64,000 nt of DNA, taken from the NCBI GenBank assembly GCA_965203175.1, contig OZ241867.1, forward strand, positions 6,496,001 through 6,560,000. Reading direction: 5' to 3'. The translations under genes were made by a program, and so were the position numbers. The notes beneath the pieces are model-generated. The model ran no database searches and was not told the DNA's origin. It saw only the letters and a list, made by a program, of their open reading frames with translations. Shown in pieces: positions 1,074 through 25,815 of the stretch (positions are counted from its first letter, which is position 1; each line of letters begins with the position of its first letter). This DNA comes from Candidatus Latescibacterota bacterium (lineage in GTDB: Bacteria > Latescibacterota > UBA2968 > UBA8231).

Positions 1074-2261
1074 TCAGTCGGGCTCCGCCTCCGCGAATTC
1101 GACAAAACAGGTCGCCACAACCTTGTCGCGCCCAGGGGTAGGAGTCTGAACTCCAGCAACCGAATCCGCAACCGCACGCAGGTCAAGGCTAGCCGAGGGC
1201 CGCAAGCGCCAGCGTTTGACCTGCTCGACCAGACAATCGCCCACGGAGTCACTGTCCACGGTCGAAGCGAGAAGCTGGACACTTTCGACTAGACCACTAG
1301 CCAAGATGACAAAGCGGATGGTTGCACTGCCCGGCAACGCCCGACCGGCTTGGAATTCACCGGCAAAGCAGCGGTTGAACGCGTCGAGTCGGGAGCGGAC
1401 AAACGCATCAATGGTCTCCGGCGCGCGCGCCAAATCGTCTGGAGCATAGCCACTCACCTCGCTAGGTGCCTGCAAGCGCGCCTGCGTGGTAGCGAGTACA
1501 GCTTCTGCTCGGGTCCGATCAACCAATGCCGCTTGCTCGATCTGGCGGACAAAGCGAAAGTCCATGTCAAAGGTCTGCAAGGGCTGGTCAAAGGCATTGA
1601 ATTTGAGAATGAAATCCCGGATGTGTAAGCGCACCTCTTCCACCCCGTCGGCCAGCGGCTCAAAGACGATAAAGCCGCTGTAGTTTTCGCCTTTGTAGAT
1701 TTTCTCCCCAACGCCGTAATTGCTGGTGCGCACCTGCCCCATGCGCATGTCAAAGCGATAGTCCTCATTGCCAGTGACGCCCTTCCGAGCGCGGTAGTAA
1801 GATTCAAAACTATGAGCCGCCGAGCCGGTCGCTATGCCGTAGGGAGTCAGTTCCTCTCCCCGGCGGTTGGTCGTGAGCCGGCTCTGCAGCGGTTGTAGCT
1901 CCACCTTGGGAAAACCCAGATTGTACACGGAGACCGCAAAAACCGTAAAGCGATTGCGCACGTACCCCGTCTGGGGATCGACGTAGTCGCCATACGTATA
2001 GGCATTGTACGAATGCGGCCCCTGAGAGGACTCCTGCGGCCACAAAGCATTTAGGGCGCGGTCGGTCATGTAGCGAACCTCGACCCGCAGTCCCTCCACG
2101 GCATAGACGACAGTCCCATCCTCTCCCAGAGTATAGTCCGGCCCTAGATCGGAGCGAGGCATCAGCAGCGATACGCGCTCGTAGCGCGGCGGATAGAGGA
2201 TGGTGCAGCCGGCAAACAACAAGACACTCCATACCGCGTGGACAGCAAACGAAATGCGCAT
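1074..2261 (-). CDS. Lipoprotein, uncharacterised family, with C-terminal TonB-C/AgmX-PglI-like domain
   Basis: Lipobox LLFAG-C; N-domain motifs NAYTYGDYVDP, RFTVF, FPKVEL, ESYYRAR shared with 14190-15317 and 42168-42887; C-terminus FNRCF...GSATIRFVILASGLVESV...VGDCLVEQVKRWRL resembles AgmX/PglI C-terminal domain. Confidence 0.75.
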   Translation of the reverse strand: MRISFAVHAVWSVLLFAGCTILYPPRYERVSLLMPRSDLGPDYTLGEDGTVVYAVEGLRVEVRYMTDRALNALWPQESSQGPHSYNAYTYGDYVDPQTGYVRNRFTVFAVSVYNLGFPKVELQPLQSRLTTNRRGEELTPYGIATGSAAHSFESYYRARKGVTGNEDYRFDMRMGQVRTSNYGVGEKIYKGENYSGFIVFEPLADGVEEVRLHIRDFILKFNAFDQPLQTFDMDFRFVRQIEQAALVDRTRAEAVLATTQARLQAPSEVSGYAPDDLARAPETIDAFVRSRLDAFNRCFAGEFQAGRALPGSATIRFVILASGLVESVQLLASTVDSDSVGDCLVEQVKRWRLRPSASLDLRAVADSVAGVQTPTPGRDKVVATCFVEFAEAEPD

Positions 2262-2265
2262 GTAC

Positions 2266-3489
2266 TCAGCGCGCCTGGTTGTAAAAATCGATTTGCTGCT
2301 GGGCGATGGAGCCCTTCTGCGTCAGGGCAAAGACCACCATATTGACTCCCAGTTTCAGGTGCGGTTCGTTTTCGCTTTCGCGTTCCCAGAAGGCACCGTA
2401 CCCCTTGTCGGAATACACCGCCACCAGTCGGTCGCCGAGGAAAATGCCCTCCAAGTAGTACACCGAACTGCGGAAATTGCCCCCGGACAATTCCTCGCCT
2501 CCAGGGGGCGGGCCATCGTCAAAGTCGAAAAATACGTGGTAGAGCGGATGCTCGTTGGGAATGGGAACAAAGCGGGCGTCGCGGCCTAGGGCCTGCTTAA
2601 ACATGTCCCGCAGCGAGGCTTCGGCCGGGCCGTACTCCAGCTCGGGCCGGTCATTGTCGGCTACCAGGAACCCGCCGTTGCGCAGGTACTTGCCCAGATT
2701 GTCAATTTCGTGCTCGGTCAGTTCAAACGCGCTGCGGGTAGTGATGTACACAAAGGGGGCCTTGAACAGATCCTGGGAGTCGATAAACATCTGGTCGATG
2801 ACCCGGGCCTCAATGCGAGTGTACTGGTTGATGGCCCGCACCAACTGGGAAATCGAGCGCTGGCGCGAAGGCTGGAGGATGCTGCCCCAAGCCAGCCCCA
2901 AGTACACAAAGCCCTGGATGTTGCGCTTGTCGGCCGGATCCTGAATGACCATGCCCCGGTACTTGCCGGTGTCAATGGCGTCCAAGTCGAGGAATTCCGC
3001 CTGCATGTCAATGCGCTTTTCCGGCTCCTTCAGACTGGTCATTTCAACGGCTTCGAACTGGGGGACGCCCACCACCCCAAGACCCATGCCTTGGACACCC
3101 ATGTCGGCGATAAAGTCGTGGCCGCTGCGGGTGCGACTCCAACGCCGACCCGCGACAGCCTGATCTAGCTGAGCACCCAAACCACTGAAGCCACCCACCA
3201 CAGTGGCCGTCTGATCCCGCTGCACGGAGATAATAGGGGTACCCTCGGGAATGACCTGCTTTTTAAAGGCGAATTCCCGGCTCAACTGAGGGGGAGGAAT
3301 CAGCAGCGGCGTGTCCAATTCCTGCCATTCGAGGCGGATGGCGACCTCTTCCTCGGCCTGTTCAACGGGCCGAAAGTACAAGGCGACAAAAACCAAGTGC
3401 AACACTAGGGAGATCAGCAGGCCCCAGTAGAGCAAGCGCCGATTGGCCGCAAGAACGGCGAGCGGATCCGAGGAGCGCAAGGCTTTCAC
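2266..3489 (-). CDS. DUF4159-domain protein with TonB-like N-terminal membrane anchor
   Basis: N-terminal TM LLISLVLHLVFV (SxxxH) then short Pro-rich stretch; C-domain PFVYIT, LGKYLRNGGFLVAD, IPNEHPLYHVFFDF, LEGIFLGDRLVAVYS, KLGVNMVVFALT typical of DUF4159; GTG start overlaps upstream stop. Confidence 0.8.
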   Translation of the reverse strand: MKALRSSDPLAVLAANRRLLYWGLLISLVLHLVFVALYFRPVEQAEEEVAIRLEWQELDTPLLIPPPQLSREFAFKKQVIPEGTPIISVQRDQTATVVGGFSGLGAQLDQAVAGRRWSRTRSGHDFIADMGVQGMGLGVVGVPQFEAVEMTSLKEPEKRIDMQAEFLDLDAIDTGKYRGMVIQDPADKRNIQGFVYLGLAWGSILQPSRQRSISQLVRAINQYTRIEARVIDQMFIDSQDLFKAPFVYITTRSAFELTEHEIDNLGKYLRNGGFLVADNDRPELEYGPAEASLRDMFKQALGRDARFVPIPNEHPLYHVFFDFDDGPPPGGEELSGGNFRSSVYYLEGIFLGDRLVAVYSDKGYGAFWERESENEPHLKLGVNMVVFALTQKGSIAQQQIDFYNQAR

Positions 3490-6400
3490 AAGTGTTTCCT
3501 CGCAATGGTGGCGCGTCGACGTTCGACAAAGGCGCGGATGTTGGGGGCGAGCAGGCTGCTGTCTTCCCGGGCCGCGCTCAGAATGGCGTCAAACACGTCC
3601 ACAGCCCGTTGCCATTCCCCTAACTTTTGATGGCAGACCCCGATATTGGCCCGGGCGGCTATACCGCTGGAGGTATGCGGGAATTGACGCCACACTTGTT
3701 CAAAGCGGGGAATTAGGGCGCGAATCGCCTCGGCGTCGCTGAGTTCGGACGCGGCTTTGAGGCTGTCGGTCAACGCCGCGTAATCTCCGTAGGCCACAGC
3801 CTCGCGCAACTCGGGCAACGCGGTGGCGGCCTGAGCGGCAGCCGGAGTGCCGGGGTATTGTTCTTCGATTTGGCGAAAGAGGTCGTACGCCGCTTGGTGG
3901 TCGCCTTGATTGTACAACAGCTCGCCGAGAGTATAGCGGGCAATGGCCGCATAGCGGCCCTCGGGAAAGCTTTCGAGGTACGCCGCAAAGGCCCGTTGCA
4001 CCTCTTTATTTTTCTGGTCCGCATCCCCAGAAAGGGAATTCATCAGACACCAGCCAATGTTGTAGAGAGCTTCCTCGGCCAAGGGGCTATGGGGATAGCG
4101 GTCAATGAGCTGCTGGTACTGGCCCTGAGCCTGATCGTACTGCTGCAGATTATAGCGGCATTCGGCTAGTCGAAAGAGAGCATCTGGGGCAATGTTGTGG
4201 TCCGGGGCCTGGGCCACGACGAACTCAAAGGCAGCCACGGCCTGGGCAAAAAGAGTCTGATTGAAGTACGCGTATCCCAAGTAGTAGTGGGCTTCCGCGG
4301 CGTTGGGGTGTTCCGGGTAGCGAGTGATCGAATCCTGCAAGCGGCCGACCGCCTCTTCGTAGCGGTCCAGTTGCAGGGCGGCCAGTCCGCCCAAGAAGAG
4401 AAAATCGGGCGCGTAAAATCCACTCGGGTACGCCGCCAGACCCGCAGCCGCGGCGTCGGCCACGGCTTGGTAATCTTCCAAGCGCAAGGCGGCGTCGGCC
4501 ATGAGCCAGTAGCACTTTTCGCGCAGATAGTAGGTGCGCTCTAAGGGCCGCTCTTCTTCGGCAAAGTCGAGGGCGAGCAGTTCCCGGCAGGTGGCAATGG
4601 ATCGGCCGTAGCGCTCTTGGCGGTAGGCGATTTCGGCCAAGGCCAGCAAGTACTCGCCGCGTTGGAACGGAGAGGAAGCCGTCTGCAGTAAACGTCGATA
4701 TAGCTGCAATCCTTGTTCAATGCGCCCACCGGCGATATAGGCCGCAGCCAACAGACGGGAAGCCGCTGTCAGGGACGAATCTGCAGCGGCGCGCTCTAGA
4801 TCGGCGATGGCTTGGGCGTGCTGACCGAGCCTGAAATAGGCCATGCCCCGGCCGTAAAAGGCTTGGTGGACAAAGGCCGAATCCGCAGCGGCTAGGGTTT
4901 GGTCAAAGTAGGGTAGGGCCGCATCGAGGTCGCCGACGCGAGACAGAGCCGTGGCGATGAGATAATTAAACAGCGTTTGAGAATCCCTAGCAGTCTCGGT
5001 TTGAGTACCTTCCCGCAGGACGGCCAACGCCCGTTGGAAGCGCCCCTGCTGCTGCAGGAGGCGACCCGCTTCGAGTCGGGAGCGCGAGAAAATTTCTGCC
5101 TCGCCACGGACCTGGAGAAAGGAGGCGACCGCCTCCTCCCAAGCGCCGGCATCGCGCTGGGCTATGGCCGCTTCAAAGCGGGCGATATCCGCTTCGGGTT
5201 TGTCGCCCAACTCTTCCTCTAAGCTCTGGTAGATCTGGACGGCATCCGCGTACTCGCCGCGGCCGTGGAGGATGCGGGCGCACTGGAAAAGGGCGCTGTT
5301 TCGGTACCCACCAGCCTGCGACGAGGTCGCCAACGCCTGGAAAATGTCGAGGGCCTGATCGGTAGTAGCCGCCTCGTTCTGGCGCTGCAAAGCCAGCCCC
5401 AAATTGAAGCGCAGGTCCATTTCGTAGGTCGAGTTGGGAAAGGCTTCTAAGGTGCGGCGCAATTCCGCTTCGGCGCGGCGGAAAAGATCGGCCCGCTCCT
5501 CGGGCGCGACTTCTCCCGCTTCGGCGCGGCCGAACCAAGCCTGGGCAATTTGCAGTCCCACCCCTTCGAGGGGTAGGCCGGCTTGAGCCGCAAAAGCGGC
5601 ATAGTCGTCGCGGTACGCGCTGTATTCGCGCACGGCCTCTAGGTAGTTCCCAGTTTCAAAGTAGCGGTTGGCCAGCAGCAATTGCAGCCGCGCCCGGCCA
5701 AAGTCGTCCTGTTGCGCTTCTAGGGCGCGCTGGTACACCGCGATACTCGCGGCGACATCGCCGCGCTGGTAGTGCAACTGAGCCTGGCGCAAATAGGCTT
5801 CCTCGGACAGGCGACGCTCGTCGGCAAAGCGCGCGGCCACCACGGCATAGGCCTCCACGGCCAGCGCGTGATCCCCAGTGCGCTCGCGGCACTCGCCAAT
5901 GCGCAGTAGGGCTTTGGCCGCAATCTCCAGCTCGGTCTCGTCGACTAGGCCGGCGAGTTTGTTGCGCTGCATGCGCAAAATCTCGCGCACGGACATGCGG
6001 TCGAGGCGCTGCGAGTCGACTAGCCGCTGGTAGTTGGGGATGGCTTCGGCAAAGCGCTCCAACGCAAAGTAGCATTCGCCAATTTGAAACAGCGCCCTGC
6101 TGGTGCGATACCCCAAGGGGAAACGCCCGACCAAATCCTCAAAAACCGCAATGCTTTGGACGTACTCGCCCAGTTGATAGTGCGACCAGCCAATATCGTA
6201 CAGCGCATGAGCTACATAGGGACTAGTGGGATATCTGGCGACTAGCTGCCGCGCTTCGTCGATGGTGCGGCGATACTCTCCCATGCGGTACGCGCAGGCC
6301 ACAGCGCGGCTGCGGGCGAGGGCCTGGAGCACCGGAGTAGCGGAGAGGGTCTCGGTGGCGACAAACGCCTCCACGGCCTGTCCCAATAAGTCGTCGGCCC

Positions 6401-6740
6401 GACTCTGGTGCTGGACGCGCGTTTCGTCGCTGCGGGCCTGCGCCGCCCTTTTGAGTTCTTCTTCGCCCATTTTGAAATAGGCATTGCCAATTTGGTACGC
6501 GGCCACTTCTTGCAGGGGCGCGTCTATTTGGCCGACGGAAACTCGAATGGCCTCCATCGCGAGCAATTTGTGCCGACTGCGCATGATGTGGCGATAGTTT
6601 TCAATGGCCTGATCGTAGGCCCCAGAGGCGTAGAAATTCTGGCCGTGCTCAAAGCGGGCCTGCATCTCCTCGGCCGTGGGCACAAAGCGAGTCGCAGCCG
6701 CGGCGAGAGTCAGTAGAGATAGGATGGCTAACGGCAGCAT
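3486..6740 (-). CDS. Large exported tetratricopeptide-repeat protein (BamD/CpoB-like repeats)
   Basis: 1084 aa, signal peptide, many TPR units e.g. ALYDIGWSHY, ALFQIGECYF, ALFRLAECRY, xxYPxSPxA turns. Confidence 0.85.
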   Translation of the reverse strand: MLPLAILSLLTLAAAATRFVPTAEEMQARFEHGQNFYASGAYDQAIENYRHIMRSRHKLLAMEAIRVSVGQIDAPLQEVAAYQIGNAYFKMGEEELKRAAQARSDETRVQHQSRADDLLGQAVEAFVATETLSATPVLQALARSRAVACAYRMGEYRRTIDEARQLVARYPTSPYVAHALYDIGWSHYQLGEYVQSIAVFEDLVGRFPLGYRTSRALFQIGECYFALERFAEAIPNYQRLVDSQRLDRMSVREILRMQRNKLAGLVDETELEIAAKALLRIGECRERTGDHALAVEAYAVVAARFADERRLSEEAYLRQAQLHYQRGDVAASIAVYQRALEAQQDDFGRARLQLLLANRYFETGNYLEAVREYSAYRDDYAAFAAQAGLPLEGVGLQIAQAWFGRAEAGEVAPEERADLFRRAEAELRRTLEAFPNSTYEMDLRFNLGLALQRQNEAATTDQALDIFQALATSSQAGGYRNSALFQCARILHGRGEYADAVQIYQSLEEELGDKPEADIARFEAAIAQRDAGAWEEAVASFLQVRGEAEIFSRSRLEAGRLLQQQGRFQRALAVLREGTQTETARDSQTLFNYLIATALSRVGDLDAALPYFDQTLAAADSAFVHQAFYGRGMAYFRLGQHAQAIADLERAAADSSLTAASRLLAAAYIAGGRIEQGLQLYRRLLQTASSPFQRGEYLLALAEIAYRQERYGRSIATCRELLALDFAEEERPLERTYYLREKCYWLMADAALRLEDYQAVADAAAAGLAAYPSGFYAPDFLFLGGLAALQLDRYEEAVGRLQDSITRYPEHPNAAEAHYYLGYAYFNQTLFAQAVAAFEFVVAQAPDHNIAPDALFRLAECRYNLQQYDQAQGQYQQLIDRYPHSPLAEEALYNIGWCLMNSLSGDADQKNKEVQRAFAAYLESFPEGRYAAIARYTLGELLYNQGDHQAAYDLFRQIEEQYPGTPAAAQAATALPELREAVAYGDYAALTDSLKAASELSDAEAIRALIPRFEQVWRQFPHTSSGIAARANIGVCHQKLGEWQRAVDVFDAILSAAREDSSLLAPNIRAFVERRRATIARKHL

Positions 6741-6757
6741 AGATCGTTCCTCGACAC

Positions 6758-8839
6758 CTAGTAGACTACTCCGACGACCCCGGCGACGCGTTCTGCGCCC
6801 GTGTCCACCTCAACTTCCACCCGATAGAGGTACAGGCCTGGAGCCACTAACAAACCCGTGGCATTGCGCCCATCCCACAAACCTGGGGGCCGACTGTCGG
6901 TTGGCAGCCGCACATAGGCCCCGGCCAACAGCGGCGGCGGACTGAGGTCGCGCACCAAGCGTCCGCTCAAATCGAAGATACGAATGCCTACCTGTCGCGG
7001 AGCCTCAACCTTGGAGAGGGCGAATTCAATAGCGGCAAAATCGTTGATCCCATCAGCGTTGGGGCTGAAGACCGGCGGGTGGACGCGCACTTGGGAGAGC
7101 GCCCGCTTCTCCGAGGTCGCGGCCGACAACACCCACGAATAAGGTGCATTGCTCTGCGGGTCAATGGCCGCGTTCTCGGCCACGTTGAGCGGATTGTCAG
7201 AATTGGGAGCAAAGAGGCGGGCGCGAAACGCATGGATCGCCGCGTGCGTTCGCGTCCTAAAGCGAATTTGCAACTGGGCGTCCTGCCGCAGCGGCTCGGC
7301 CAAGGAGATGGTTAGCTTGTCGCGCGTCGAGTCCCAAGCCTCAAGCGCACTACCTTCCAAGCCGGTGATTTCTTCGAGCATAGCCGGCGCGGGCACGTCG
7401 ATGCGGATCTGGGCTAGGCCCGCGTCGGCGTCGGCGAATTCCACATCGAGCGTGTAGGTAAAGGAGGTATCCCGGCCCATGGGGACGCGGTTGGGGACAA
7501 TGCGGCCCCACGCTTTGGAGACGGGCACTTGGTCGAGATCAAAATCGATCTCTAGGTGCTTGAAAACAGGGGTTTTCTCGGGAGAACGAGTCGCCATGTT
7601 GACCCGATATTGCAAAAGCGCCCGCGGTTCCTCGGCTGGAAACCAGATGTCCCCGGTGGTGAGGGGCGAGCTCCACCCCCCTGCCGAATCGGCTAGCGCG
7701 GCAGCTTGGTCGGCGCTGCGGAACTGCACGGTGAGTTCCGTGCCATCGGGAACTGTGGCCCGCCAGCGCACTCGACCTACGTTCTTGACCACGTCTGGAG
7801 CGCCTAAGTCGAGCGGTGCCGAAATGAACGTTCCCCGCTCTGCGTGCAGGCTGCCGTACACCTCTATTTCGGCTACGTTGGGCTGAGTGATGGCGTTGAT
7901 ATCGACGATGACCAAGCGCAAGTGGCGCGTCCACAGCGGCGGGAAGCGGACCTCGCTGCGGATGAAATCGACGATGTCGCGCAGGATGGCCACTTCGGTC
8001 CAGCGAATTTGGTCGTCGCTGACCTGAATCGAGTACCCGCGCAGGGAGCGGTCGAAGTACTGCTCTTGGTTGCGGCCCCGGGTTAGAACCCGCACAGCGT
8101 GGATTTTGCGCCGCGTTCCCAAGTCGATATCGGCATTGAAATTCAAGGCGTTGATCGGCGGATTCCACGAGGTATTCAAATCGCCGTCGAGCACTTCCGG
8201 GCGATTGGAGATCCGGTCCTTGGCCAAATTTTGGCCGCGCACTTGTTTGAGGATAATGCCGCCGGCTAGAGAGCCAATATCCGTCCCACCTAAAAAGCCG
8301 GCGATAGGCTGGCCGAAGGACAAAGACGGCTCCAAGGTGCCTTCTTGTACCAGATGCCAAGCCTCGTCCCGCGCCACCTCGGCAGTCGTCCACCCATCGT
8401 CATCCTGCAACTGGTCACTCCAGTACCAAGGCTGGCGGGTGCGATCGGTCGTCGTTTGCACTGTCGAGGTGTCCCCCGCAGCAAATTCCACGGCCACGGT
8501 CGCGGCCAAACCATTGCCCCGCCCGCGACCGTGGTTGACCACCAGCGCGGCGATGTGGTTATCGCCGCGCACCACTGGCACCGCAAAAACTCGCGGCTGC
8601 ACAGCGCTGGAATCGCTGCCGACTAGCTCTCCGTTGAAGTACGCGGCAAAGCTGTCGGCTGCGGCCATGTGCAGCAAGCCCTCGCCGGCTTCGGGGGCCT
8701 CAAAGGTGGCGCGGTAGTAGAGCGCGCTGCGCCATGCGGTCTGCTCCCAGGTGCTCCCCTCGGTCTGGACGGCGGAGCACACTGCGGCTAGGCCGACAAC
8801 GGCGAGCAGGATCCGTTCTTTCAAAACTGTGGGGATCAT
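6758..8839 (-). CDS. Secreted discoidin/F5-8-type-C-like protein with FlgD-Ig/CHU_C-like C-terminal domain
   Basis: Signal peptide; LDGDLNTSW, IDLG, YSIQVSDDQIRW, AEIEVYG; C-terminus FSPNADGIND...IFDLSGRLVR...WDGRNATG...PGLYLY...VVY; close paralog of 23646-25706. Confidence 0.8.
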   Translation of the reverse strand: MIPTVLKERILLAVVGLAAVCSAVQTEGSTWEQTAWRSALYYRATFEAPEAGEGLLHMAAADSFAAYFNGELVGSDSSAVQPRVFAVPVVRGDNHIAALVVNHGRGRGNGLAATVAVEFAAGDTSTVQTTTDRTRQPWYWSDQLQDDDGWTTAEVARDEAWHLVQEGTLEPSLSFGQPIAGFLGGTDIGSLAGGIILKQVRGQNLAKDRISNRPEVLDGDLNTSWNPPINALNFNADIDLGTRRKIHAVRVLTRGRNQEQYFDRSLRGYSIQVSDDQIRWTEVAILRDIVDFIRSEVRFPPLWTRHLRLVIVDINAITQPNVAEIEVYGSLHAERGTFISAPLDLGAPDVVKNVGRVRWRATVPDGTELTVQFRSADQAAALADSAGGWSSPLTTGDIWFPAEEPRALLQYRVNMATRSPEKTPVFKHLEIDFDLDQVPVSKAWGRIVPNRVPMGRDTSFTYTLDVEFADADAGLAQIRIDVPAPAMLEEITGLEGSALEAWDSTRDKLTISLAEPLRQDAQLQIRFRTRTHAAIHAFRARLFAPNSDNPLNVAENAAIDPQSNAPYSWVLSAATSEKRALSQVRVHPPVFSPNADGINDFAAIEFALSKVEAPRQVGIRIFDLSGRLVRDLSPPPLLAGAYVRLPTDSRPPGLWDGRNATGLLVAPGLYLYRVEVEVDTGAERVAGVVGVVY

Positions 8840-12478: not shown

Positions 12479-12480
12479 AG

Positions 12481-15317: not shown

Positions 15318-15321
15318 CGGC

Positions 15322-18138: not shown

Positions 18139-20879
18139 CCTTTGAACGGCTCCAATCCCATGACTAGGCGCATGAAAAACAAAACTTGGTCAATGTCTTC
18201 GATCTGGCGCGAGCGGTCGTCGAATTGCAGTTGTTTGCGTTGGTAACCCGTGCTCAGACTGAGGTGGTAGCCCTTGTAGGTCGTCCTATTGGTCACCATG
18301 ACCACATAGTCCTCGGCCCCATAGTTGACAGCACCGTTGACGCGATCGCGGTACCTGCTTTTGAGCCAGGGCAAGCCCTGGGCACCAGCGCTGAAGCGGG
18401 TCATGGGCGTCAGATTGTACGTCGCGGTCAGGATCGGATAGAAAAAGCGCTCTGAAATGGGCCGCACCCGATCGCTGCGATCGCGCCGCACAAAGCCCAT
18501 GTACTTAATGCGGGGTGTCACCGTCAAGCTACCCACATTCCAGTTATACGCCGCTCTCAACACCCAGGACCAAGCGCCGATTCGATTGGCGGGTTGTAGG
18601 GATGTGGGGCGCTGGAAATTGACGTCGTACTTGAGGCGCTGGTCGATGTTGAGGTTGTCGATGCGGAAGAAGGTGGCCTTGAGATAGGCGGTGTTGACCA
18701 AGCTATTGCGCATGGCCAACTCGTCCTCGACTAGCTCAAAATTAGCCACATTGGCGTCAAAAGTACCCCGCACCTCAAAGGGTAGGGCATTGGAGATGCG
18801 CGGCAAAAATTGCGGAGTGTCGTCCTCAATGTCGTCTTGCACCTGCTTGAACACATTGAAAAATTCCACGCGGCCGTACGGGAAAAGGGAGCGCTGATAG
18901 GCCGTCTTGAAATAGGAGACGCGGTTTTTCCCCGCTCCCCAGATCTGGCGCGTGCGGTAGCGTCCCACGGTAAATTCAAGTCCGGTGCGGGGACGTAGGC
19001 CGGCGAACAGGTGATGTCCCTGGGTATCCACATCGTAGGGATAATCGGGCTCAAAGTCGTCTTCCCGATGGTCGATGATGCCGTTGTTGTCGAAGTCGTC
19101 GCCGTAGTCGTATTCGGGAGGATCGACGTTATAGAGTACAAAGGGCTCGAGGTAGTCGGGAGCGGTGTTGCCGTTTTCGTTGGGATCGGGCTGGCCGTCC
19201 TGATCGAGGTCGAGGCCGGGGAAGATGCCGTCGTTATCGGCAAAATTCGGTATGAAGTGCATGTCGGGAAAGCGGTCGCGATCGTCGTTGTCATCTACCG
19301 TGGACAATTCGAGGGTGTTGTTGTAGCGCTCGTCAAAGCTGGGAAAGACGCTGAAGGGGCTGCGCAGATCCTCGGTGTACGTGCGGTAATTCCGGTCCTC
19401 GACGGAAATGCTAGTGCTGTACTGGGGCGCGATGCGGAAGACCTCAAAGCCTAAGCTGGCGCGGTGCCAATCCCGAGTAGTATTGACAAAAAAGGCGTCG
19501 GCCGTGCGACGCTGCCACTTGCCGTCTCCGGCGTGGGAGGGATACTGGCGAAATTCAAAGGTGCGGGCGAACTCCGTGCGCAGAGAAAAATCCCGGCGCT
19601 GCACTTCGAGGCGCAGGCTGGCATTGGTGCGGCCCGTGTGGCGGCCGTACTCAAAGTTCACCCAGCGCCGGTTGGAGCCATCGCGCACTTGGCCCTCGGC
19701 CGCGATCACCGGATAGAAAAAAGTGGCGCGTTCGCCAGTTATATCGACGTTGGTCGATGACTCGACCGCAGCCGGCAGAAAAACTTCGGCCATTTCAATG
19801 CGGTAGTCATTGGCCACCATCCCGCGAAAGCGCAAGCGCTCGACCTGCCCTCGCATCTCCTGGGGTATTTTGAACCAGTAGAGCAAAAACTCCGAGCCAT
19901 TGGCTTCGAGAAATTCCCCTTGCTCGGCCGGCTCCACAGCCAAGTCTCCCCGGAGAAACTCGATGTACGGCGGTATGGTCTTGCCCAGCGGAAAGAAGCG
20001 GTCGCGGTTGGGATAGGTTCTATCGATTTGCTCGCTATCGTGGCGGGTGACGAGTGGCTGGACGGTTCCGAGCGTCCCTTCGATGTGCAGGTCGTAGATC
20101 CGGGCTCCGCCGCCATCCTTAGGCGAACCATCGTCGAACTTGACCACTATGTAGGCCGGCGGCGTGTTCTTGCGCGGCACCACGCCCTTGATGCTGTTGT
20201 CGCCCCAAGAGGTCAAGCTGTTGGTGCGGTGCAAGTTGACATAGGAGAAGCTCACGTCCAGCACCCCGAACTTGCGCTGGACGTGGCCGCCGAGCAGGTA
20301 GGTAGCCCAATCCCGGGCTCCGTGCAATTCGAGATTATCCCCCGGAAAGATGGGCCAGTCGAGGCGCGACGTGACAAAGGAAAATTGGCTGCCATCGACA
20401 TCGGCGTCCCAGCGGGCGCCGTTGAGCGCAACTAGGTCGAGAGTGAGGGCGGTGAACTTGGTGCGGATGCGGTCGCCGACGATCAGCCGGCTGCTCCAAT
20501 TGCCATAGCTGTCTTGGGCCACCAGCAGGCGATTGAGGTACTGCTGGTAAAAGCGGCTTTTGTCGATAAAACTACCCGACTCGGGCGGATTGGTCCGCCC
20601 TTCCTCCAATTCAAAAACGCCGACCCCGTCGAGGACGAAGTTGCCCAAATCGTCGTACACATTGCGCGTGACTTGGCCAAATATCCCCGAGTTGTACGCG
20701 CGGTACCCCTGGCGGGCATAGCTTTCGTAGCGCTCCTCAGCATCGTAGAGCAGTTGCCCAAAGGCGGGCGCGGACCAAGCCAAGACGATGAGTACTAGGA
20801 CCATCACAGCACGCACCTCTCGATAAAAATCAATCGCCCCATCTGCGTTCCATCTGCGTCCATCTGCGGATAACATCAC
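18135..20879 (-). CDS. ~900-aa predicted outer-membrane beta-barrel protein with Asp-rich insert (paralog 2); true start may be near 20804-20816
   Basis: GDRIRTKFTALTL, DDGSPKD, GQVRDGSN, DDNDDRDRFPD, DGIFPG, PDYLEPFV, DFEPDYPY; ends FFMRLVMGLEPFKG; signal peptide MVLVLIVLAWSAPAFG. Confidence 0.7.
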   Translation of the reverse strand: MMLSADGRRWNADGAIDFYREVRAVMVLVLIVLAWSAPAFGQLLYDAEERYESYARQGYRAYNSGIFGQVTRNVYDDLGNFVLDGVGVFELEEGRTNPPESGSFIDKSRFYQQYLNRLLVAQDSYGNWSSRLIVGDRIRTKFTALTLDLVALNGARWDADVDGSQFSFVTSRLDWPIFPGDNLELHGARDWATYLLGGHVQRKFGVLDVSFSYVNLHRTNSLTSWGDNSIKGVVPRKNTPPAYIVVKFDDGSPKDGGGARIYDLHIEGTLGTVQPLVTRHDSEQIDRTYPNRDRFFPLGKTIPPYIEFLRGDLAVEPAEQGEFLEANGSEFLLYWFKIPQEMRGQVERLRFRGMVANDYRIEMAEVFLPAAVESSTNVDITGERATFFYPVIAAEGQVRDGSNRRWVNFEYGRHTGRTNASLRLEVQRRDFSLRTEFARTFEFRQYPSHAGDGKWQRRTADAFFVNTTRDWHRASLGFEVFRIAPQYSTSISVEDRNYRTYTEDLRSPFSVFPSFDERYNNTLELSTVDDNDDRDRFPDMHFIPNFADNDGIFPGLDLDQDGQPDPNENGNTAPDYLEPFVLYNVDPPEYDYGDDFDNNGIIDHREDDFEPDYPYDVDTQGHHLFAGLRPRTGLEFTVGRYRTRQIWGAGKNRVSYFKTAYQRSLFPYGRVEFFNVFKQVQDDIEDDTPQFLPRISNALPFEVRGTFDANVANFELVEDELAMRNSLVNTAYLKATFFRIDNLNIDQRLKYDVNFQRPTSLQPANRIGAWSWVLRAAYNWNVGSLTVTPRIKYMGFVRRDRSDRVRPISERFFYPILTATYNLTPMTRFSAGAQGLPWLKSRYRDRVNGAVNYGAEDYVVMVTNRTTYKGYHLSLSTGYQRKQLQFDDRSRQIEDIDQVLFFMRLVMGLEPFKG
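20839..20873. repeat. Short tandem repeat (CCATCTGCG x3; CGCAGATGG on minus strand)
   Basis: ccatctgcg-tt-ccatctgcg-t-ccatctgcg-gataa at the junction of two barrel genes. Confidence 0.6.
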
Positions 20880-23563
20880 AGCACGCGCGCCTGGACGAAA
20901 AATTCTTTGAAGTTGCGCACCCTGCGGCCGGGCGTGTGCACAAAGCGGGTGTGGCTGGCGCGGAAACCCAAATTGAGACTGAGATCGAAGCCCCGGTTGT
21001 GGCTGCGGTTCTCAATGGCAAAAAGGTAGTGGCGGGCCGTGAAATCTCCGGCCGGGTACTCCGGGTTGCGGAAGGTATGAGGCCAGCCCGGCAAGCCCTG
21101 AACGCCAAAGCGCAGCACCGTGGCTTGGCCCAGTGTGTAGTCCGCCTGCAGAATGGGAAAAAGTTCATACGTGCGGAGAGGCAACAGCAGATCCTCGGGA
21201 GCGGTGCGGCGCTGAAGCCTCAGTTTGGCGCTGGGGCGGATTTTTAGGCCCTGGCGCACAAAGGTGTAATCCGCCTTGCTGGTCCAAGTCCAGTCGATAA
21301 TATGGCGTCGCTGGTCTAGCGTCTCCAGCATGCGGTTGATTTCGAGCTTGGTGGTAGCTTTGACTTGCATCCCGGGTATAGGCGCGTATCCCGCGGTGCC
21401 GTACAGGGTGTGGAGCCAGCTATTTCGCGCCAGCAGTGGATCGGGTTTGATCTTGATCGCGGTATTGGTCGCGGTCAGCGGATCGACGACGTGCTGGTAC
21501 ACTGGATCGGCGATAGTATCGCGCACCCGCTTGCTCCGCATATTGAACTGTACATGCCCTCTCTGGTATTGCGCCTCCCCGTACGCGACTTGGTTGCGGC
21601 CGGCACCAGCGCGCTGTTCAATGCGGTACTGCCCGAGGCGGAATTGCCAGGATGAGCGGGGGTGGAGAAGGGCGAATGAATGATACCCACGGCTATCGAG
21701 CGGATAGGGATAGTCCGGCAGATTGTCGTTCTCGCGCCGGTCCACTACGCCGTTGTTGTTGAAATCGTCGCCGTACACAAAATCATCTGGTTCAACGGCG
21801 TACATGAGGAACGGCTCGGCGTAGTCGGGTATCTGGTTCTGGTTCACATTGATCGCCAAAACCCCATCTCCATCTTGGTCCAGCCCGGGAAAAACCCCGT
21901 ACCCAACGCCGTTGCCGAGGTTGCCGGGCAGGTAATCAATGGCGGCCTGAGTCGGCTGGCTCTCCGGGTCCACGCCAGCGGCATCCTTCAGACTGATGTA
22001 GAGTGGATCAAGCGGATCCCAGTGCTCCCAGCGGTCCTCCCAGTAGTCGCCGTCGTCGTTGTCGTCCACCAGCGCGTAGTCCAGAACCTTGTCGGCGCGT
22101 TCCGACCACATGGGCAAAGTAGTGGCGTACGCCGCCGGCAGGCCAAACATCTCAAGGCCGACTGCGAGGCTATCCATCTGGTGCAGCCCCTTGAGGAAAA
22201 AGGCCCGGCTGGCGCGGCGCTGATGCTGGCTGGCACCAGGGAAGCGGCGGTACCCAACGTTTTCGACCAACTCGCCCGCAAGGGTCGTCCCCTCCCATTC
22301 CCAAAGAAAGTCGCTGCCGTACTGGATTTGCGCAGTGGGAAAGCCGTATTCAAAACTCACCCAGCGCAAGTTGGACCCATCCCGGACATTGCGCGGCGCA
22401 CGCGCGACATTGTGCCAGTCAGTCCAGATGCGATTGGGCACGCCGGCCCAGCCGTAGGCCGCCGCCACGTCAATACTATAGTCGCCGGCCACTTGGGCGC
22501 GAAAGCTCAGGCGCTCGGCCGTAGCTGGAATTTCCCAGCGGTAGACCAGCAGGTCGGTGCCGCCCACTTCGAGGGGAAACTCCGCTGCTGCAACGGGCAG
22601 ACCCTGCTGAAAAAAGAGGCCGCGTTCCCTCCGTCGGTTGTTGAGCCGGGGATCGAAGACTCGGTCGCGCGGTACGCTCTGCGGGGCCCAGGGACCGTGG
22701 CGGCGCAGATGGGGGACGTGGTCCGGGTCGGCAAGGCGCGGGATGCGCCGAATATCCGGCTCGATTGGGAGCGGAGCACCATCGACAAAAATTTCCACGG
22801 CCAGCACTTGCACGCCGCTGTCATCCTCGGGAGAATCGTCGCTGAAAACCACGTAGTAGGCCGTAGTCTTAGCCAAATCCGTCGGAAAGGTGCCGCGCGT
22901 CGACCCCCGGCGCTGCATGCTATCGCGCAGATGCAGATTGACGTACGAACCACCGACGGTGAGCACATTGCCCAGACGGCTTTCCCAGCGGCCGCCGAAC
23001 AGATAGGTGGCAAACGGGAGATTGTTGGCACCGCCGACTAGCGGCGAAGAAACCCGAGCACCCAGTACGGTAAAGCGATTCTTGTACGAAGCCCCATCCC
23101 AGCGCAGCCCCTGCAGGCGCGCCTTGTCGAGAGTTAGCGGCGTGAAGCGGGCCTCGAGGGCGTCGCCGACCATGACCCGGGCCGACCAGTCGCGGTAGTG
23201 ATCGCGCATGATGACCAAGTTGCGAAAGGTGGCCGCAATATTGCCGCTGCGGAAAATTCGGCTGCTGCGCTGGGGTGCTAGCGTGCGGTATTCCTCCACG
23301 CGCAACAACTCCACCCCGTCGAGCAAATAGGCCCCAAAGGGGTCGTAGGTCGGGTTCTCGGGACGGGCCGTGTAGTCGCGGTAACTGAGCAGGCTGTAGT
23401 TTTCGTAGCGCTCGTGCCACCAAGGGTAGTACTCGCGGTTGAGGAAGCGGGACTGGGCCTGGCTCCAAGGCAGGTACTCGGTGGTGGTAAGTTGGCCTTC
23501 CGCCCGCTCCCAAGCGATGACGCAGAGCAACGCAGCCAGCCCAATGATCGGGAGGCCCTTCAT
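20876..23563 (-). CDS. ~900-aa predicted outer-membrane beta-barrel protein with Asp-rich insert (paralog 3)
   Basis: Signal peptide; GDALEARFTPLTL, DDSPEDD, RNVRDGSN, DDNDDGDYWED, GVFPGLDQDGDG, PDYAEPFL, NLPDYPY; ends EFFVQARVL. Confidence 0.7.
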   Translation of the reverse strand: MKGLPIIGLAALLCVIAWERAEGQLTTTEYLPWSQAQSRFLNREYYPWWHERYENYSLLSYRDYTARPENPTYDPFGAYLLDGVELLRVEEYRTLAPQRSSRIFRSGNIAATFRNLVIMRDHYRDWSARVMVGDALEARFTPLTLDKARLQGLRWDGASYKNRFTVLGARVSSPLVGGANNLPFATYLFGGRWESRLGNVLTVGGSYVNLHLRDSMQRRGSTRGTFPTDLAKTTAYYVVFSDDSPEDDSGVQVLAVEIFVDGAPLPIEPDIRRIPRLADPDHVPHLRRHGPWAPQSVPRDRVFDPRLNNRRRERGLFFQQGLPVAAAEFPLEVGGTDLLVYRWEIPATAERLSFRAQVAGDYSIDVAAAYGWAGVPNRIWTDWHNVARAPRNVRDGSNLRWVSFEYGFPTAQIQYGSDFLWEWEGTTLAGELVENVGYRRFPGASQHQRRASRAFFLKGLHQMDSLAVGLEMFGLPAAYATTLPMWSERADKVLDYALVDDNDDGDYWEDRWEHWDPLDPLYISLKDAAGVDPESQPTQAAIDYLPGNLGNGVGYGVFPGLDQDGDGVLAINVNQNQIPDYAEPFLMYAVEPDDFVYGDDFNNNGVVDRRENDNLPDYPYPLDSRGYHSFALLHPRSSWQFRLGQYRIEQRAGAGRNQVAYGEAQYQRGHVQFNMRSKRVRDTIADPVYQHVVDPLTATNTAIKIKPDPLLARNSWLHTLYGTAGYAPIPGMQVKATTKLEINRMLETLDQRRHIIDWTWTSKADYTFVRQGLKIRPSAKLRLQRRTAPEDLLLPLRTYELFPILQADYTLGQATVLRFGVQGLPGWPHTFRNPEYPAGDFTARHYLFAIENRSHNRGFDLSLNLGFRASHTRFVHTPGRRVRNFKEFFVQARVL

Positions 23564-23594
23564 AATTCAGTATACCTATTTTAAATATTGCGCC

Positions 23595-23623
23595 GTAGGG
23601 GGCGGTTTGAAACCGCCCCCTAC
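23595..23623. repeat. GTAG-type REP-like palindrome
   Basis: Perfect 14-bp inverted repeat GTAGGGGGCGGTTT-G-AAACCGCCCCCTAC in the intergenic spacer. Confidence 0.75.
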
Positions 23624-23645
23624 CCGGGTGCGTAACATCAGTTAG

Positions 23646-25706
23646 TCAGTAAACCACAGCCACGTGGCCGCTGTGGACCGCCTCCCCTGCATCGACCTCG
23701 ACCTCGACCTGAAAGAGGTAGAGACCCGGGGGCACTAGGTTGCCGCGGTCATCGCGTCCATCCCAATAGCCGGGGCTTTCCCTCTCCCGGCCGGGCAAGC
23801 GCAAATAGGTTCCCGCGCTCAGGGCCGGGGGCCGGAGCCGGGCCACAGTGCGGCCGCTTAAGTCGAAGATGCGCATGGATACTGGGCGCGCCACATCCAC
23901 TCTGGAGAGAACCAATTCGATCACCGTGGCGTCGTTGACACCATCGCCGTTGGGCGAAAATACCGGCGGATTGGCCCGCACCTGTTCGAGGACTTGGCCG
24001 GTAACCGTGGTCGTAACCAACGTCCACGAATGGGGCCTTTGAGTGCGCGGGTCTTCGTCTTGATTGGGCGCGGCATTGAGCGGATTTTCCGAATCTGGGC
24101 TAAACAGGAACGCGCGAAAACGGTGCAGATGGGCATAGGAGCGAGTGCGGAAGGGAATCTGCAACTGAGTGCTTTGCCGCAGGGGCTCGGCGAAAATCAA
24201 GGTGAGCAAGTGCTGGGTGGAAAACCACTCGGCCAGCACAGTACTCCCCAAGTCAATACCCGGGCCGAGCTGAGCCTGTCCAGGCACAGCTATTTGCAAG
24301 CTTTTGACCCCCTGATCGCCAGCGCCGATCTCCACGTCGAGGGTATAGACAAAGTTGGTATCCACGCCCATCGGCACCCGGTTGGGCTCGACGCGACCAC
24401 GGGCCGTGGACGCAGCTATATCCTCGGTGGAGTACTCGATGCTCAGATCGCGAAAAAGAGGACTTTTCTCCGGGTCCCGGCTCTCCATATTGACGCGATA
24501 CTGCAAAAACCGCCCGGGTTCGGGGCCGGGAAAAAGGATTCCTCCAGCGACCAGCGGAGTGCTCCAGCCCCCCTGGGGATCGGCAAAAGCGTCCAAGGTG
24601 GCACCGCTGCGAAACTGGACCGCTAGATCCGTGCGCAGGGGAATGTCTGCATTCCAAGCGATGCGGCCGAAATTCTTGCGCTTGTCCGGTGCTCCCAGAT
24701 CCAGCGGTTCGGAAAGAAAAACGCCCTCCTCGGCAAAACCCTCGCCAAAGACCTGAATCTCGGCGACCTTGGGCTGGCTCACGCCATTGACGTCGATGAT
24801 GACAATGCGCACGAACCGGGTCCAAGTCGGATTGAAGACCACTTCGGTGCGCTCGAACTGGAGGATATCGTGCAAAACCCCCACCTCGGACCAGCGGATT
24901 TCATTGTCGCTGACTTGCACGGAATAGCCCTGTAGGGAATTCTGGGCGAAGTCGGGCCCCTCGGTGAGCACCCGCACGGCCCGGATCAGTCGGCGCTGTT
25001 GCAAGTCGATGGAGGCGGCAAAATTGACCGAGGATACGGGCGGTTCCCAAGCAGTGCGCAAATCGCCATCCACGGCTTCTATGCGATTGGAGGGCCGCCC
25101 TAAAGCCAAGTTCTCACCGCGTATTTGCTTGAGAACCACGCCACCAGCCACGCCGCCGATATCCGTGCCGCCGGGAAAACCAGCGACTAGGTCCGGGGCC
25201 GGATCGGGCAAGCCCTCGATCAGGCCGCGATTGACGCTACCGGCCTGGACCACCTGCCAACCCGGCTGCTCCGCGATCTCGGCCACTTGCCAGTCCGTGT
25301 CGGCCGGGCGAGCGGTCCAGTACCAGGTCTGGGCTTTGGGATCGGTCTCGCCGTAGCGCAGGGAATCGACCGCGACCACAGCCAGCAGGCCATGCCCTAC
25401 GCCCAAACCGCGATTGACCACCTCGACGGCCAAGGCGTTATCGCCGCCGAGCACGTCAACTGGGTAGGTGTGCACCTGGTTCCAAAACGCACTGGCCCCG
25501 ATGGCAACGCCATTGAAATAGACCGCAAAACTGTCCACCGCGGCAATGTGGAGCAGCCCTGAGGCACCGCTATCGGCCGCAAAGCTAGTGCGGTAGTACA
25601 GGGTATTGCGATAGGTGTCCTGGGTCCAGACCTCGGCGCGGCTCCCACCCGAAAGCATTAGCAGGAGGCAGGCTACCAACCCGGATCTGATGTGGGCTCG
25701 GACCAT
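23646..25706 (-). CDS. Secreted discoidin-like protein with FlgD-Ig/CHU_C-like C-terminal domain
   Basis: Start reassigned to ATG 25706 (MVRAHIRSG signal peptide); VDGDLRTAW, YSVQVSDNEIRW, FSPNGDGVND...WDGRDDRG...VVY; paralog of 6758-8839. Confidence 0.8.
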   Translation of the reverse strand: MVRAHIRSGLVACLLLMLSGGSRAEVWTQDTYRNTLYYRTSFAADSGASGLLHIAAVDSFAVYFNGVAIGASAFWNQVHTYPVDVLGGDNALAVEVVNRGLGVGHGLLAVVAVDSLRYGETDPKAQTWYWTARPADTDWQVAEIAEQPGWQVVQAGSVNRGLIEGLPDPAPDLVAGFPGGTDIGGVAGGVVLKQIRGENLALGRPSNRIEAVDGDLRTAWEPPVSSVNFAASIDLQQRRLIRAVRVLTEGPDFAQNSLQGYSVQVSDNEIRWSEVGVLHDILQFERTEVVFNPTWTRFVRIVIIDVNGVSQPKVAEIQVFGEGFAEEGVFLSEPLDLGAPDKRKNFGRIAWNADIPLRTDLAVQFRSGATLDAFADPQGGWSTPLVAGGILFPGPEPGRFLQYRVNMESRDPEKSPLFRDLSIEYSTEDIAASTARGRVEPNRVPMGVDTNFVYTLDVEIGAGDQGVKSLQIAVPGQAQLGPGIDLGSTVLAEWFSTQHLLTLIFAEPLRQSTQLQIPFRTRSYAHLHRFRAFLFSPDSENPLNAAPNQDEDPRTQRPHSWTLVTTTVTGQVLEQVRANPPVFSPNGDGVNDATVIELVLSRVDVARPVSMRIFDLSGRTVARLRPPALSAGTYLRLPGRERESPGYWDGRDDRGNLVPPGLYLFQVEVEVDAGEAVHSGHVAVVY

Positions 25707-25758
25707 CGCGTTGCGGATTGTTGCCAGATGGACGGAAAAGGCGGCGAAACGCAGAAAA

Positions 25759-25796: not shown

Positions 25797-25815
25797 CAGC
25801 CATCCCCTCTGAGGT

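Follow-up and report, generated by a model that had tools for sequence, protein, structure and literature searches.

INTRODUCTION

In Myxococcus xanthus, the Agl-Glt machinery has been modeled as three outer-membrane (OM) barrels, GltA, GltB, and GltH, that carry an adhesin, with a pillar of tetratricopeptide repeats (TPR), GltD, that binds the TonB C-terminal-domain (CTD)-like domains of GltG and GltJ and with AglR5QS as the motor (Cambillau and Mignot 2025, PMC11761067). The core complex, encoded by aglRQS with gltD, gltE, gltG, and gltC, is clustered in several phyla, Fibrobacter included, with a function given as unknown (Luciano et al. 2011, PMC3169522). In Bacteroidota, proteins with a type-B CTD bind PorP-like barrels along with PorE (Gorasia et al. 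2022, PMC9143113), and SprF is disulfide-linked to a track of GldK, which has the FGE fold (Liu et al. 2025, PMC12635249). These accounts follow extracts of the four papers. Here, we analyze a 64-kb stretch of DNA, C1:6496001-6560000 of the 6.58-Mb single-contig genome of a Latescibacterota bacterium (the window), in which an array of 13 genes encodes three giant barrels, surface proteins ("cargo") with type IX secretion system (T9SS) CTDs, lipoproteins with TonB-C-like tails, a transmembrane (TM) protein with a DUF4159 head, and a TPR protein of more than 1,000 residues (the TPR giant). The closest analogue of this array appears to be the Agl-Glt core, combined with the logic of type-B CTDs and PorP.

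The Latescibacterota, a widespread and uncultured phylum, degrade complex organic matter, and we know of nothing established experimentally about their cell surface. From the parts encoded by the cluster, we infer a conserved, multi-copy, motor-linked barrel-and-cargo envelope system that would resemble Agl-Glt in design and whose surface proteins would be delivered by the T9SS, a reading to which we give an even chance.

The likeness to Agl-Glt, and to its M. xanthus paralogue Nfs, lies in the list of parts. In both, the motor genes are one of TolQ/ExbB type and two of TolR/ExbD type, and a TPR protein exceeding 1,000 residues takes the central place in the periplasm. Both also have a TPR lipoprotein, AgmX/PglI-type TonB-C-like domains, three different OM barrels encoded together, and an associated surface adhesin-like protein and lipoprotein, and both come in several paralogous copies per genome. 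The likeness to GltD and to GltA/B/H is, however, one of size, domain type, and gene number only. Moreover, the barrels described here are about 900 residues long and form a new family with Ca-loop-like inserts, whereas GltA/B/H are small and porin-like. The TonB-C tail is found on a lipoprotein instead of a TM protein, the TM protein that is shaped like TonB has a DUF4159 head, the window showed no genes for a cytoplasmic platform (AglZ/MglA/GltI in M. xanthus), and the surface proteins carry T9SS CTDs.

The likeness to the type-B CTD/PorP-SprF system is of another kind. Cargo with an xPNGDGxND-type CTD is encoded beside an OM barrel, TPR and beta-propeller periplasmic proteins are encoded nearby, SprA, PorU, and a PorV-like protein are encoded in the genome, and FGE-fold lipoproteins are encoded at the focal locus. 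Here, in contrast, the barrels are three times larger and unrelated in sequence to PorP/SprF, and a genome-wide search with the PorP/SprF model (TIGR03519) found no member; its only match, the PorV-like gene, scored 21 bits where 90.55 are required, and there was none among the window barrels. The FGE lipoproteins, moreover, are not conserved with the system. A GldK-track mechanism dependent on the twin cysteines of SprF was considered and set aside, as no cysteines were seen by eye at the barrel C termini and the FGE genes lack conservation. Both analogies were drawn in a preliminary description of this DNA; they are apt, but scores fall below the curated cut-offs for type-B CTDs, PorP/SprF, GldK, and GltG/GltE.

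RESULTS

The focal array

The array consists of 13 minus-strand open reading frames (ORFs) at 1074-25772, named g1 to g13 in order of transcription (Table 1). The genes are as tightly packed as first described: 11 of the 12 junctions are overlaps or gaps of at most 17 bp, and the exception is the g2/g1 gap of 82 bp. The g1 ORF extends to 25772, and an internal Met at 25706, where the preliminary description let the array end, is its probable start. The starts of g6, g7, and g8 were chosen by eye as the first Met ahead of the lipobox or TM segment, and signal peptides, lipoboxes, and TM segments were also assigned by eye. Domains of window proteins were called with Pfam and NCBIfam models, and nearly all of the earlier domain calls hold. 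Several members are paralogues, with 51% identity between cargo proteins g1 and g10, 48% between lipoproteins g5 and g13, and 27-31% among barrels g2 to g4.

The co-oriented run begins upstream of g1, with genes for a TPR lipoprotein, then T9A (a type-A T9SS CTD protein), and then a PD40 propeller. A further 2.5 kb past the upstream end of that run lie genes for an ExbB/TolQ-family proton-channel subunit and two ExbD/TolR-family subunits. The preliminary parts list of barrels, cargo, TPR proteins, and TonB-like parts stands, but this ExbB-ExbD-ExbD set at 33048-34580 had been overlooked.

Conservation of the core

Barrels, cargo, TPR giant, DUF4159 protein, and lipoprotein form a syntenic unit. 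We sampled 75 barrel-anchored loci from other genomes, with flanks of up to 10 kb and genes labeled by best hit. The common order, kept in many relatives at only 30-50% identity, is T9A, cargo, BAR2, BAR3, BAR4, TPR giant, DUF4159, lipoprotein, one further gene, and ExbB. A second arrangement reads TPR-DUF4159-lipoprotein-x-cargo-BAR2-BAR3-cargo-BAR4, a third reads ExbB<-x-cargo-cargo-BAR2-BAR3-TPR-DUF4159-lipoprotein-BAR4, and a KSB1-labeled variant was also found.

The TPR giant marks a distinct set of loci. It is present in 32 of the 75, and the DUF4159 protein accompanies it in 27 of those 32 and occurs in 1 of the 43 loci without it. The corresponding counts are 28/32 and 5/43 for the lipoprotein, 27/32 and 10/43 for cargo, 23/32 and 12/43 for three barrels, and 20/32 and 22/43 for T9A, a conserved gene that opens the core in many relatives. 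All three barrel orthogroups are found in 22 of the 32. ExbB was detected by hidden Markov model (HMM) in 14 of the 75 loci, of which 13 have the TPR giant and one is a truncated example of the third arrangement. The core is a T9SS-CTD protein, cargo, three barrels, the TPR giant, the TM-DUF4159 protein, and the lipoprotein, often with a motor. That the machine is powered by the proton motive force (PMF), as first proposed, is plausible because the core repeatedly adjoins an ExbB/ExbD motor.

Genes g6 to g9 are a lineage-specific accessory insertion and lie outside the machine. We set them apart from the core because in TPR-giant loci FGE genes occur in 1 of 32 (one of the g9 type and none of the g7 type), GDSL in 0 of 32, and CRTAC in 5 of 32; in the 43 other loci, the counts are 0, 0, and 9. 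Of the single machine first proposed, the unit of barrels, cargo, TPR giant, DUF4159 protein, and lipoprotein therefore stands, and the FGE, SGNH-TPR, and CRTAC1 genes are not conserved parts of it.

The families also co-occur across genomes. We searched 121 genomes of the phylum, among which kinship makes the counts a lineage pattern and not a statistical test. The barrel profile matched 71 genomes, and the lipoprotein profile matched 69, all of them inside the barrel-positive 71, with the two exceptions 89% and 64% complete. The DUF4159-type profile matched 78, comprising all 71 barrel genomes at E <= 1e-20 (the weakest being G029 at 2.2e-21, and most far stronger) and 7 others weakly (E 5e-21 to 1e-29). 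Barrel and lipoprotein are both absent from whole families, f2 (0/29), f3 (0/13), f4 (0/2), and f8 (0/5), where DUF4159 matches are at most weak. SprA, found in 116 of the 121 genomes, is present in all members of these families, and its presence there indicates that the barrel system was added onto a phylum-wide T9SS and is not part of it. Related loci are titled nearly always as Candidatus Latescibacterota metagenome-assembled genomes (MAGs), with a few Gemmatimonadota, Handelsmanbacteria, KSB1, and Myxococcales labels. Among the genomes searched, the system is nearly confined to those labeled Latescibacterota.

Paralogous copies in the genome

The focal cluster is not a one-off machine. The genome contains five strong TPR-giant loci (C1:2.80, 3.056, 5.63, 6.165, and 6.50 Mb, the last being the focal one) and a weaker one at 1.27 Mb. 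At two of the paralogous loci, loc12 and loc35, an ExbB-ExbD-ExbD set is directly attached. Three of the seven MotA/ExbB genes in the genome lie beside three-barrel clusters, and a fourth lies in a barrel-less cluster at C1:3053056-3061643. That cluster encodes a 340-aa protein, a lipoprotein N-domain protein, a 311-aa protein with a PorV/FadL-like N terminus (by eye), a TPR giant, ExbB, ExbD, and a DUF4159-type protein, and the nearest giant barrel is 21 kb away. The barrel-less cluster may be an ancestral motor module.

Barrels are more numerous still. HMMs built from the window paralogues and run on 22,824 six-frame ORFs of the genome found 62 barrels (861-1,049 aa), 18 lipoprotein N-domain proteins, and 174 cargo-like proteins. 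The barrels are spread over 40 loci, each with 1 to 5 cargo-like genes within 12 kb. The simple module consists of a protein of about 313 aa (33 loci), about three cargo genes (118 genes, 40/40 loci), and one or two barrels, with a SurA-like peptidyl-prolyl isomerase (PPIase) in 33 loci and the lipoprotein in 15. Clustering of 779 neighboring ORFs, with Pfam annotation of representatives, showed PMT_2-TPR proteins (12 loci), FGE proteins (8 loci), sulfatases, GDSL enzymes, and ABC sugar-transport genes to be frequent neighbors. The recurrent protein of about 313 aa looks CBM9-like, with Atlas scores of 0.93-0.97 and a CBM9_1 match of E 8e-10 for the loc12 copy. Unclassified neighbors, 62 from the 18 of 35 simple loci with at least two such genes, are mostly sugar-acid/oxidoreductase enzymes and MFS/ABC transporters.

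The giant barrel family

The barrels are an undescribed, Pfam-less OM family of about 24 to 26 strands. Neither g2 to g4 nor a fourth barrel in the window matched any Pfam model, Plug and TonB_dep_Rec included, and NCBIfam was also empty for g2 to g4. A word-index search returned 39 relatives, all unnamed and none with a Pfam domain, and the 30 nearest clusters in an Atlas search were likewise all unnamed. In an exhaustive search of 1.84 billion cluster representatives (50% identity), the barrel profile matched 1,115 when the limit was set at E <= 1e-3; with limits of E <= 1e-10 and E <= 1e-30, the matches numbered 747 and 374.

A structural model of g3 is consistent with a large barrel. The AlphaFold2 model (pLDDT [predicted local distance difference test] 70.7, predicted template-modeling score [pTM] 0.72) has about 24 to 26 long barrel strands from residue ~118, an inserted beta-sandwich at ~243-393, and an acidic segment at ~490-618 modeled at low confidence. 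Conservation within the family is highest in the acidic segment, where D, N, P, and G residues are invariant, and, read by eye, it would be a series of EF-hand/dockerin-like Ca-binding loops. Foldseek matched the model in the Protein Data Bank (PDB) only to generic large barrels (SlpA, MtrB, LptD, SprA, and TonB-dependent receptors). LptD-LptE, MtrB-MtrA, SprA, and Deinococcus SlpA, barrels of 26-36 strands that enclose partners, are thus the best matches, with a similar number of strands and a lipoprotein encoded alongside, but template-modeling scores are at most 0.25. Candidate relationships were also rejected by sequence: hhalign gave a probability of 2% for the SprA of the same genome, and a profile search of PDB chains gave two chance-level matches and nothing meaningful. 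DUF5916 and DUF6029, leads from the CBM9-like neighbor and Atlas, matched other genes of the genome.

Cargo and type IX secretion

Cargo proteins g1 and g10 carry CTDs that resemble those of T9SS substrates. The g1 protein ends in a domain with the motif FSPNGDGVND and matches F5_F8_type_C (E 9e-11) and CHU_C (27.9 bits against a cut-off of 27), and g10 scores 23.9 bits against CHU_C, below that cut-off. An xPNGDGxND-type motif is found in the last 130 residues of 124 proteins of the genome, and 95 of these are encoded no more than 12 kb from a barrel, in what amounts to 17.6% of the genome. Moreover, 37 of the 62 barrels have a motif gene directly adjacent on the same strand.

The genome encodes a T9SS outside the window. 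SprA (490+124 bits) and PorU (632 bits) both pass their cut-offs, a PorV-like gene beside PorU scores 147.5 bits, below the cut-off of 250, and there are at least 51 T9SS CTD matches. As stated earlier, sprA, porV, and gldLM are absent from the 64-kb window. A whole-genome search thus found SprA, PorU, and PorV-like genes but no qualifying GldK/L/M/N match: models of GldL, GldM, and GldN were silent genome-wide, a weak negative in that they were silent in control genomes too, and the best genome-wide GldK-model match was g9, at 84 bits against 350. In a search of the window, g7 and g9 scored 77.4 and 122.8 bits against that model (TIGR03525), and g9 and g7 scored 48.5 and 38.7 bits against the GldJ model TIGR03524, with a cut-off of 458; the likeness to GldK and GldJ is one of FGE fold only. 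A literature search found no paper on type IX secretion in Latescibacteria, and its terms returned only T9SS and Latescibacteria papers unrelated to a barrel-motor system.

TonB-like parts and the TPR giant

The lipoproteins combine a conserved N-domain with a TonB-like tail. Both g5 (57.2 bits) and g13 (48.6 bits) pass the cut-off of 40 for NF033768, the AgmX/PglI model of a TonB-C-like domain, and the family has an invariant lipobox Cys and a strongly conserved N-domain. In an AlphaFold2 model of g5 (pLDDT 86.8), the tail gave clear Foldseek matches to TonB CTDs (6fip, 7zc8, 6sly, 2gsk_B, and 1xx3; TMt 0.46-0.60), and the N-domain showed weak likeness to MPT63/YjhA-type beta-sandwich lipoproteins (E ~6e-3 to 1e-2).

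The DUF4159 protein (g12; E 2.9e-33) has a short cytoplasmic N terminus, one TM helix, and, in most orthologues, a Lys/Pro-rich stretch before the head, and we call it TonB-shaped on account of helix, stretch, and head together. The only mention of DUF4159 found in the literature was in a Pfam paper. The TPR giant, g11, is presumed to be a periplasmic scaffold. It passes the YbgF-type repeat model as a repeated domain (210 bits against 90) and has a BamD-like match. A complex prediction of g11 (25-870) with g13 (250-395), each chain with its own alignment, gave an ipSAE of 0.00 in both runs, which were made without controls and are uninformative either way.

Environment and expression

DNA nearly identical to that of the organism is present in public runs from sponge, coral, and marine metagenomes. 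Contigs from metatranscriptomes fill 23-30 of 30 bins of window 6000-25999 and span the g11/g10, g9/g8, g5/g4, and g3/g2 junctions, a weak hint that relatives express genes of the focal array. Such contigs indicate neither strand nor expression level nor a single transcript, may stem from DNA carry-over, and carry no evidence in bins left uncovered. In one contig, X17, 80 bases of the g2/g1 spacer (23562-23643) are missing, and some relatives may therefore be without that spacer.

Other genes of the window

The window contains a second, smaller paralogous module at 40950-53726, with the same makeup as the stereotyped simple unit of the genome (~33-40 loci). The DUF6785/6784 protein (Table 1), which may be an inner-membrane transporter partnered with barrel modules, has paralogues in 21 of the 40 barrel loci, and no mention of DUF6785 was found in the literature search. 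We note two further CRTAC1-like (FG-GAP plus UnbV_ASPIC) genes, at 53677-56513 and 60988-63794, each with a TPR partner of about 400 aa; the pair recurs in 21 barrel loci, and g6 is 42-44% identical to the two window copies. Finally, a 355-aa ORF without a family match lies on the plus strand at 4-1071, convergent on g13, and a gene for a putative endonuclease of the Uma2 family lies at 57173-57898.

Table 1. Genes of the 64-kb window, in window coordinates
Feature	Position	Strand	Description
g1, cargo 1	23646-25772	-	708-aa ORF; signal peptide, jelly-roll N-terminal part, F5/8-type-C, CHU_C/FlgD_ig-like T9SS-type CTD
g2, barrel BAR2	20876-23563	-	895 aa; conserved orthogroup
g3, barrel BAR3	18135-20879	-	914-aa ORF; signal peptide begins at internal Met
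g4, barrel BAR4	15322-18138	-	938 aa
g5, lipoprotein lipoT5	14190-15317	-	375 aa; lipobox Cys21, beta-sandwich N-domain, TonB-C-like tail
g6, CRTAC1-like lipoprotein	12481-14190	-	FG-GAP_3 x7 + UnbV_ASPIC; accessory
g7, FGE-sulfatase-fold lipoprotein	11651-12475	-	274 aa; accessory insertion
g8, TM + GDSL/SGNH (GDSL_2) + TPR	9588-11657	-	689 aa; accessory insertion
g9, FGE-sulfatase-fold lipoprotein	8836-9591	-	251 aa; accessory
g10, cargo 2	6758-8839	-	693 aa; F5/8-type-C + CHU_C-like; paralogue of g1
g11, exported TPR protein TPR1085 (TPR giant)	3486-6740	-	1,084 aa; core
g12, TM-DUF4159 protein	2266-3489	-	Bitopic inner-membrane protein: N-terminal TM, linker, DUF4159 head; core
g13, lipoprotein lipoT13	1074-2261	-	395 aa; TonB-C-like tail; core
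TolB-like PD40 beta-propeller	25816-26871	-	351 aa; unit membership uncertain
T9A, type-A T9SS CTD protein	26945-28768	-	607 aa; TIGR04183 31.4 bits (cut-off 23)
TPR lipoprotein	28936-30567	-	543-aa ORF; generic TPR; co-oriented; in close relatives L034-36, L066
ExbB/TolQ-family proton-channel subunit	33048-33740	+	MotA_ExbB E 3e-29
ExbD/TolR-family subunit 1	33749-34177	+	
ExbD/TolR-family subunit 2	34179-34580	+	
T9SS substrate	34594-37956	-	1,120 aa; ThuA, glucose/sorbosone dehydrogenase, PKD, CBM6, Por_Secre_tail CTD
DUF6785 + DUF6784 membrane protein	37953-39929	-	658 aa
CBM9-like protein	40950-42017		~313 aa; second module
Short g5/g13-family lipoprotein	42168-42887		No TonB-C tail; second module
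Three cargo-like CTD proteins	42893-49400		Second module
Fourth window barrel	49626-52337		903 aa; second module
SurA-like PPIase	52290-53726	-	Second module

DISCUSSION

How the core might work can be proposed from the parts. The CTD proteins would be exported by the T9SS and held on neighboring barrels, much as PorP/SprF hold type-B-CTD cargo. The ExbB/ExbD proton channel would drive the TonB-shaped proteins, which together with the TPR giant would bridge the periplasm to the three-barrel platform. The PMF may thereby be put to moving, gating, or remodeling the complex of barrels and cargo at the surface, by a force transduction like that of Agl-Glt, and the use could be adhesion or surface capture.

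Several observations weigh against a motor-linked system of this kind. Scores fall short of the curated equivalog cut-offs for GltG (NF033760, 31.8 and 20.2 bits against 650, in the tail only), for GltE (NF033758, 70.7 bits against 225 for the TPR lipoprotein at 28936-30567), for GldK, and for the type-B CTD (TIGR04131, 17.3 bits for g1 and 18.2 bits for g10 against 35). The same holds for Tol-Pal components: the focal ExbB scores 129.7 bits against 221 for TolQ and the two ExbD subunits score 78.5 and 65.8 bits against 127.3 for TolR, these being their best-scoring models, the matches are to the generic families only, and the PD40 propeller scores 335 bits against 343 for TolB. Moreover, the focal motor is divergent, on the opposite strand behind a sulfatase gene, and the 5.63-Mb TPR-giant cluster has no ExbB within 90 kb. 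Short lipoproteins of about 255 aa, of other subtypes, are without the TonB-C tail, which is found on long forms only. An SxxxH motif is typical of TonB/TolA anchors, and it was rejected as a feature of the DUF4159 family, being matched in just 7 of 34 DUF4159-type ORFs from related and own-genome loci (g12 was the query). In the TM helix, SxxxH is confined to the focal subtype (g12, by eye, and the orthologues of L039-L042 and L062), and a Lys/Pro-rich linker takes its place in other subtypes. The 36 simple barrel loci have neither a TPR giant nor a motor of their own, and barrels are thus evidently able to work without a dedicated adjacent motor. Expression support is confined to short Logan contigs, 90-97% alike, in four metatranscriptome libraries of three studies.

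Nor are the 13 genes a single obligate operon, as had been claimed. In a close relative, G121 (91-95% protein identity, 9 TPR-giant paralogues), the array is split between the counterparts of g6 and g8 (CRTAC6 and GDSL8) by a simple module of about 19 kb (C1:1310861-1329695, L136/L137). The insert encodes CRTAC, TPR, cargo, a 311-aa protein, cargo, a barrel, and a PPIase, with PPIase, barrel, and cargo genes on the opposite strand. We conclude that the 13 genes are a composite of two halves and that modules move into and out of arrays.

The expansion of the barrels could instead serve nutrition. In energized uptake of the SusCD/TonB kind, the barrels would import glycans or polymers, the CTD and CBM9-like proteins would bind them, and the motor and TonB-like parts would open the channels. 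Such a system shares with this one an ExbB/ExbD-family motor, a TonB-C fold, and OM barrels of about 900 residues, whose genes have expanded to dozens of loci in a genome and neighbor those for surface binding proteins, transporters, and catabolism. Indeed, the 62 barrels in 40 stereotyped loci recall the expansion of SusC, the cargo has F5/8-type-C lectin-like domains, the recurrent neighbor is CBM9-like, and the flanks encode MFS/ABC sugar transporters, DUF6785/6784 (21 loci), UxuA, MR_MLE, Amidohydro_2, GFO_IDH_MocA, and sulfatases. The occurrence of the organism's DNA in sponge, coral, and marine metagenomes also fits. The barrels, however, have neither Plug nor TonB_dep_Rec, and the genome already encodes 31 classical Plug-domain receptors besides them. 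There is no SusD-like gene, and the binding proteins are T9SS substrates instead of lipoproteins. Enrichment of glycoside hydrolases, as in a polysaccharide utilization locus, was rejected, as just 2 of the 62 unclassified neighbors from the 18 loci are glycoside-hydrolase-like. No regulator typical of such loci recurs in the barrel loci, and most barrel loci are without a TonB-like gene. We consider uptake a rather unlikely explanation.

The barrels might also hold cargo passively. They would then be the counterpart of PorP/SprF, and the TPR giant, DUF4159 protein, lipoprotein, and ExbB/ExbD would be a separate Tol-Pal/Ton-like integrity system that happens to lie nearby. PorP binds type-B cargo in Bacteroidota (extract of PMC9143113), and in this genome no PorP/SprF gene was found, yet 124 proteins have a type-B-like motif and are mostly encoded beside barrels. 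A lipoprotein-TPR-ExbB-ExbD-DUF4159 cluster exists without barrels, repeats of the YbgF/CpoB type are matched by the TPR giant, and upstream a propeller resembling TolB is encoded. Against passive anchoring, the order of three barrels, TPR giant, DUF4159 protein, and lipoprotein is kept in relatives at 30-50% identity and through three arrangements. Moreover, the N-domain family of the lipoproteins is common to motor clusters and simple barrel modules, and the families co-occur genome by genome; passive anchoring seems improbable to us. Least likely of all, and very much so, is that ExbB/ExbD-TPR-TonB-like clusters substitute for the T9SS energizer and power SprA-dependent export, with the barrels as export accessories. 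The silence of the GldL/M/N models, the weak best GldK match of g9, and the presence of SprA, PorU, and the PorV-like gene would fit such a role. The Gld models are silent in every control genome, however, making their silence weak evidence; SprA is present in 116 of 121 genomes, including all of f2, f3, f4, and f8, which are without barrel and lipoprotein; and several paralogous clusters per genome argue for dedicated rather than housekeeping systems.

A motor-linked barrel-and-cargo system could, in a bolder form that is possible but that we hold only tentatively, be an additional class of trans-envelope machine driven by protons, next to Ton, Tol, Agl-Glt, and the GldLM motor of the T9SS. 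Each cell would have several specialized copies, in which a TolQR-type motor acts via a DUF4159-headed TonB analogue, a lipoprotein TonB-C domain, and a TPR giant on a heterotrimer of giant Ca-binding barrels, moving or gating lectins delivered by the T9SS. The main home of the class would be the Latescibacterota, and KSB1-labeled MAGs would harbor relatives. If so, it would offer uncultured bacteria associated with sponges and sediments an energized means of polymer capture or of surface motility.

What the analysis defines is a Pfam-less OM barrel family that has expanded to occupy dozens of loci in a genome, a consistent pairing of giant barrels with T9SS-type surface proteins, and a conserved barrel variant wired to a Tol/Exb-type motor via unusual TonB-like parts. 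It also places SprA, PorU, and a PorV-like protein in a genome where GldKLMN models found nothing that qualified. If the coupling that we infer is real, the list of known proton-driven envelope machines would grow. The system would then illustrate the Agl-Glt design principle a second time, independently, and would offer a lead on how T9SS cargo is retained outside the Bacteroidota.

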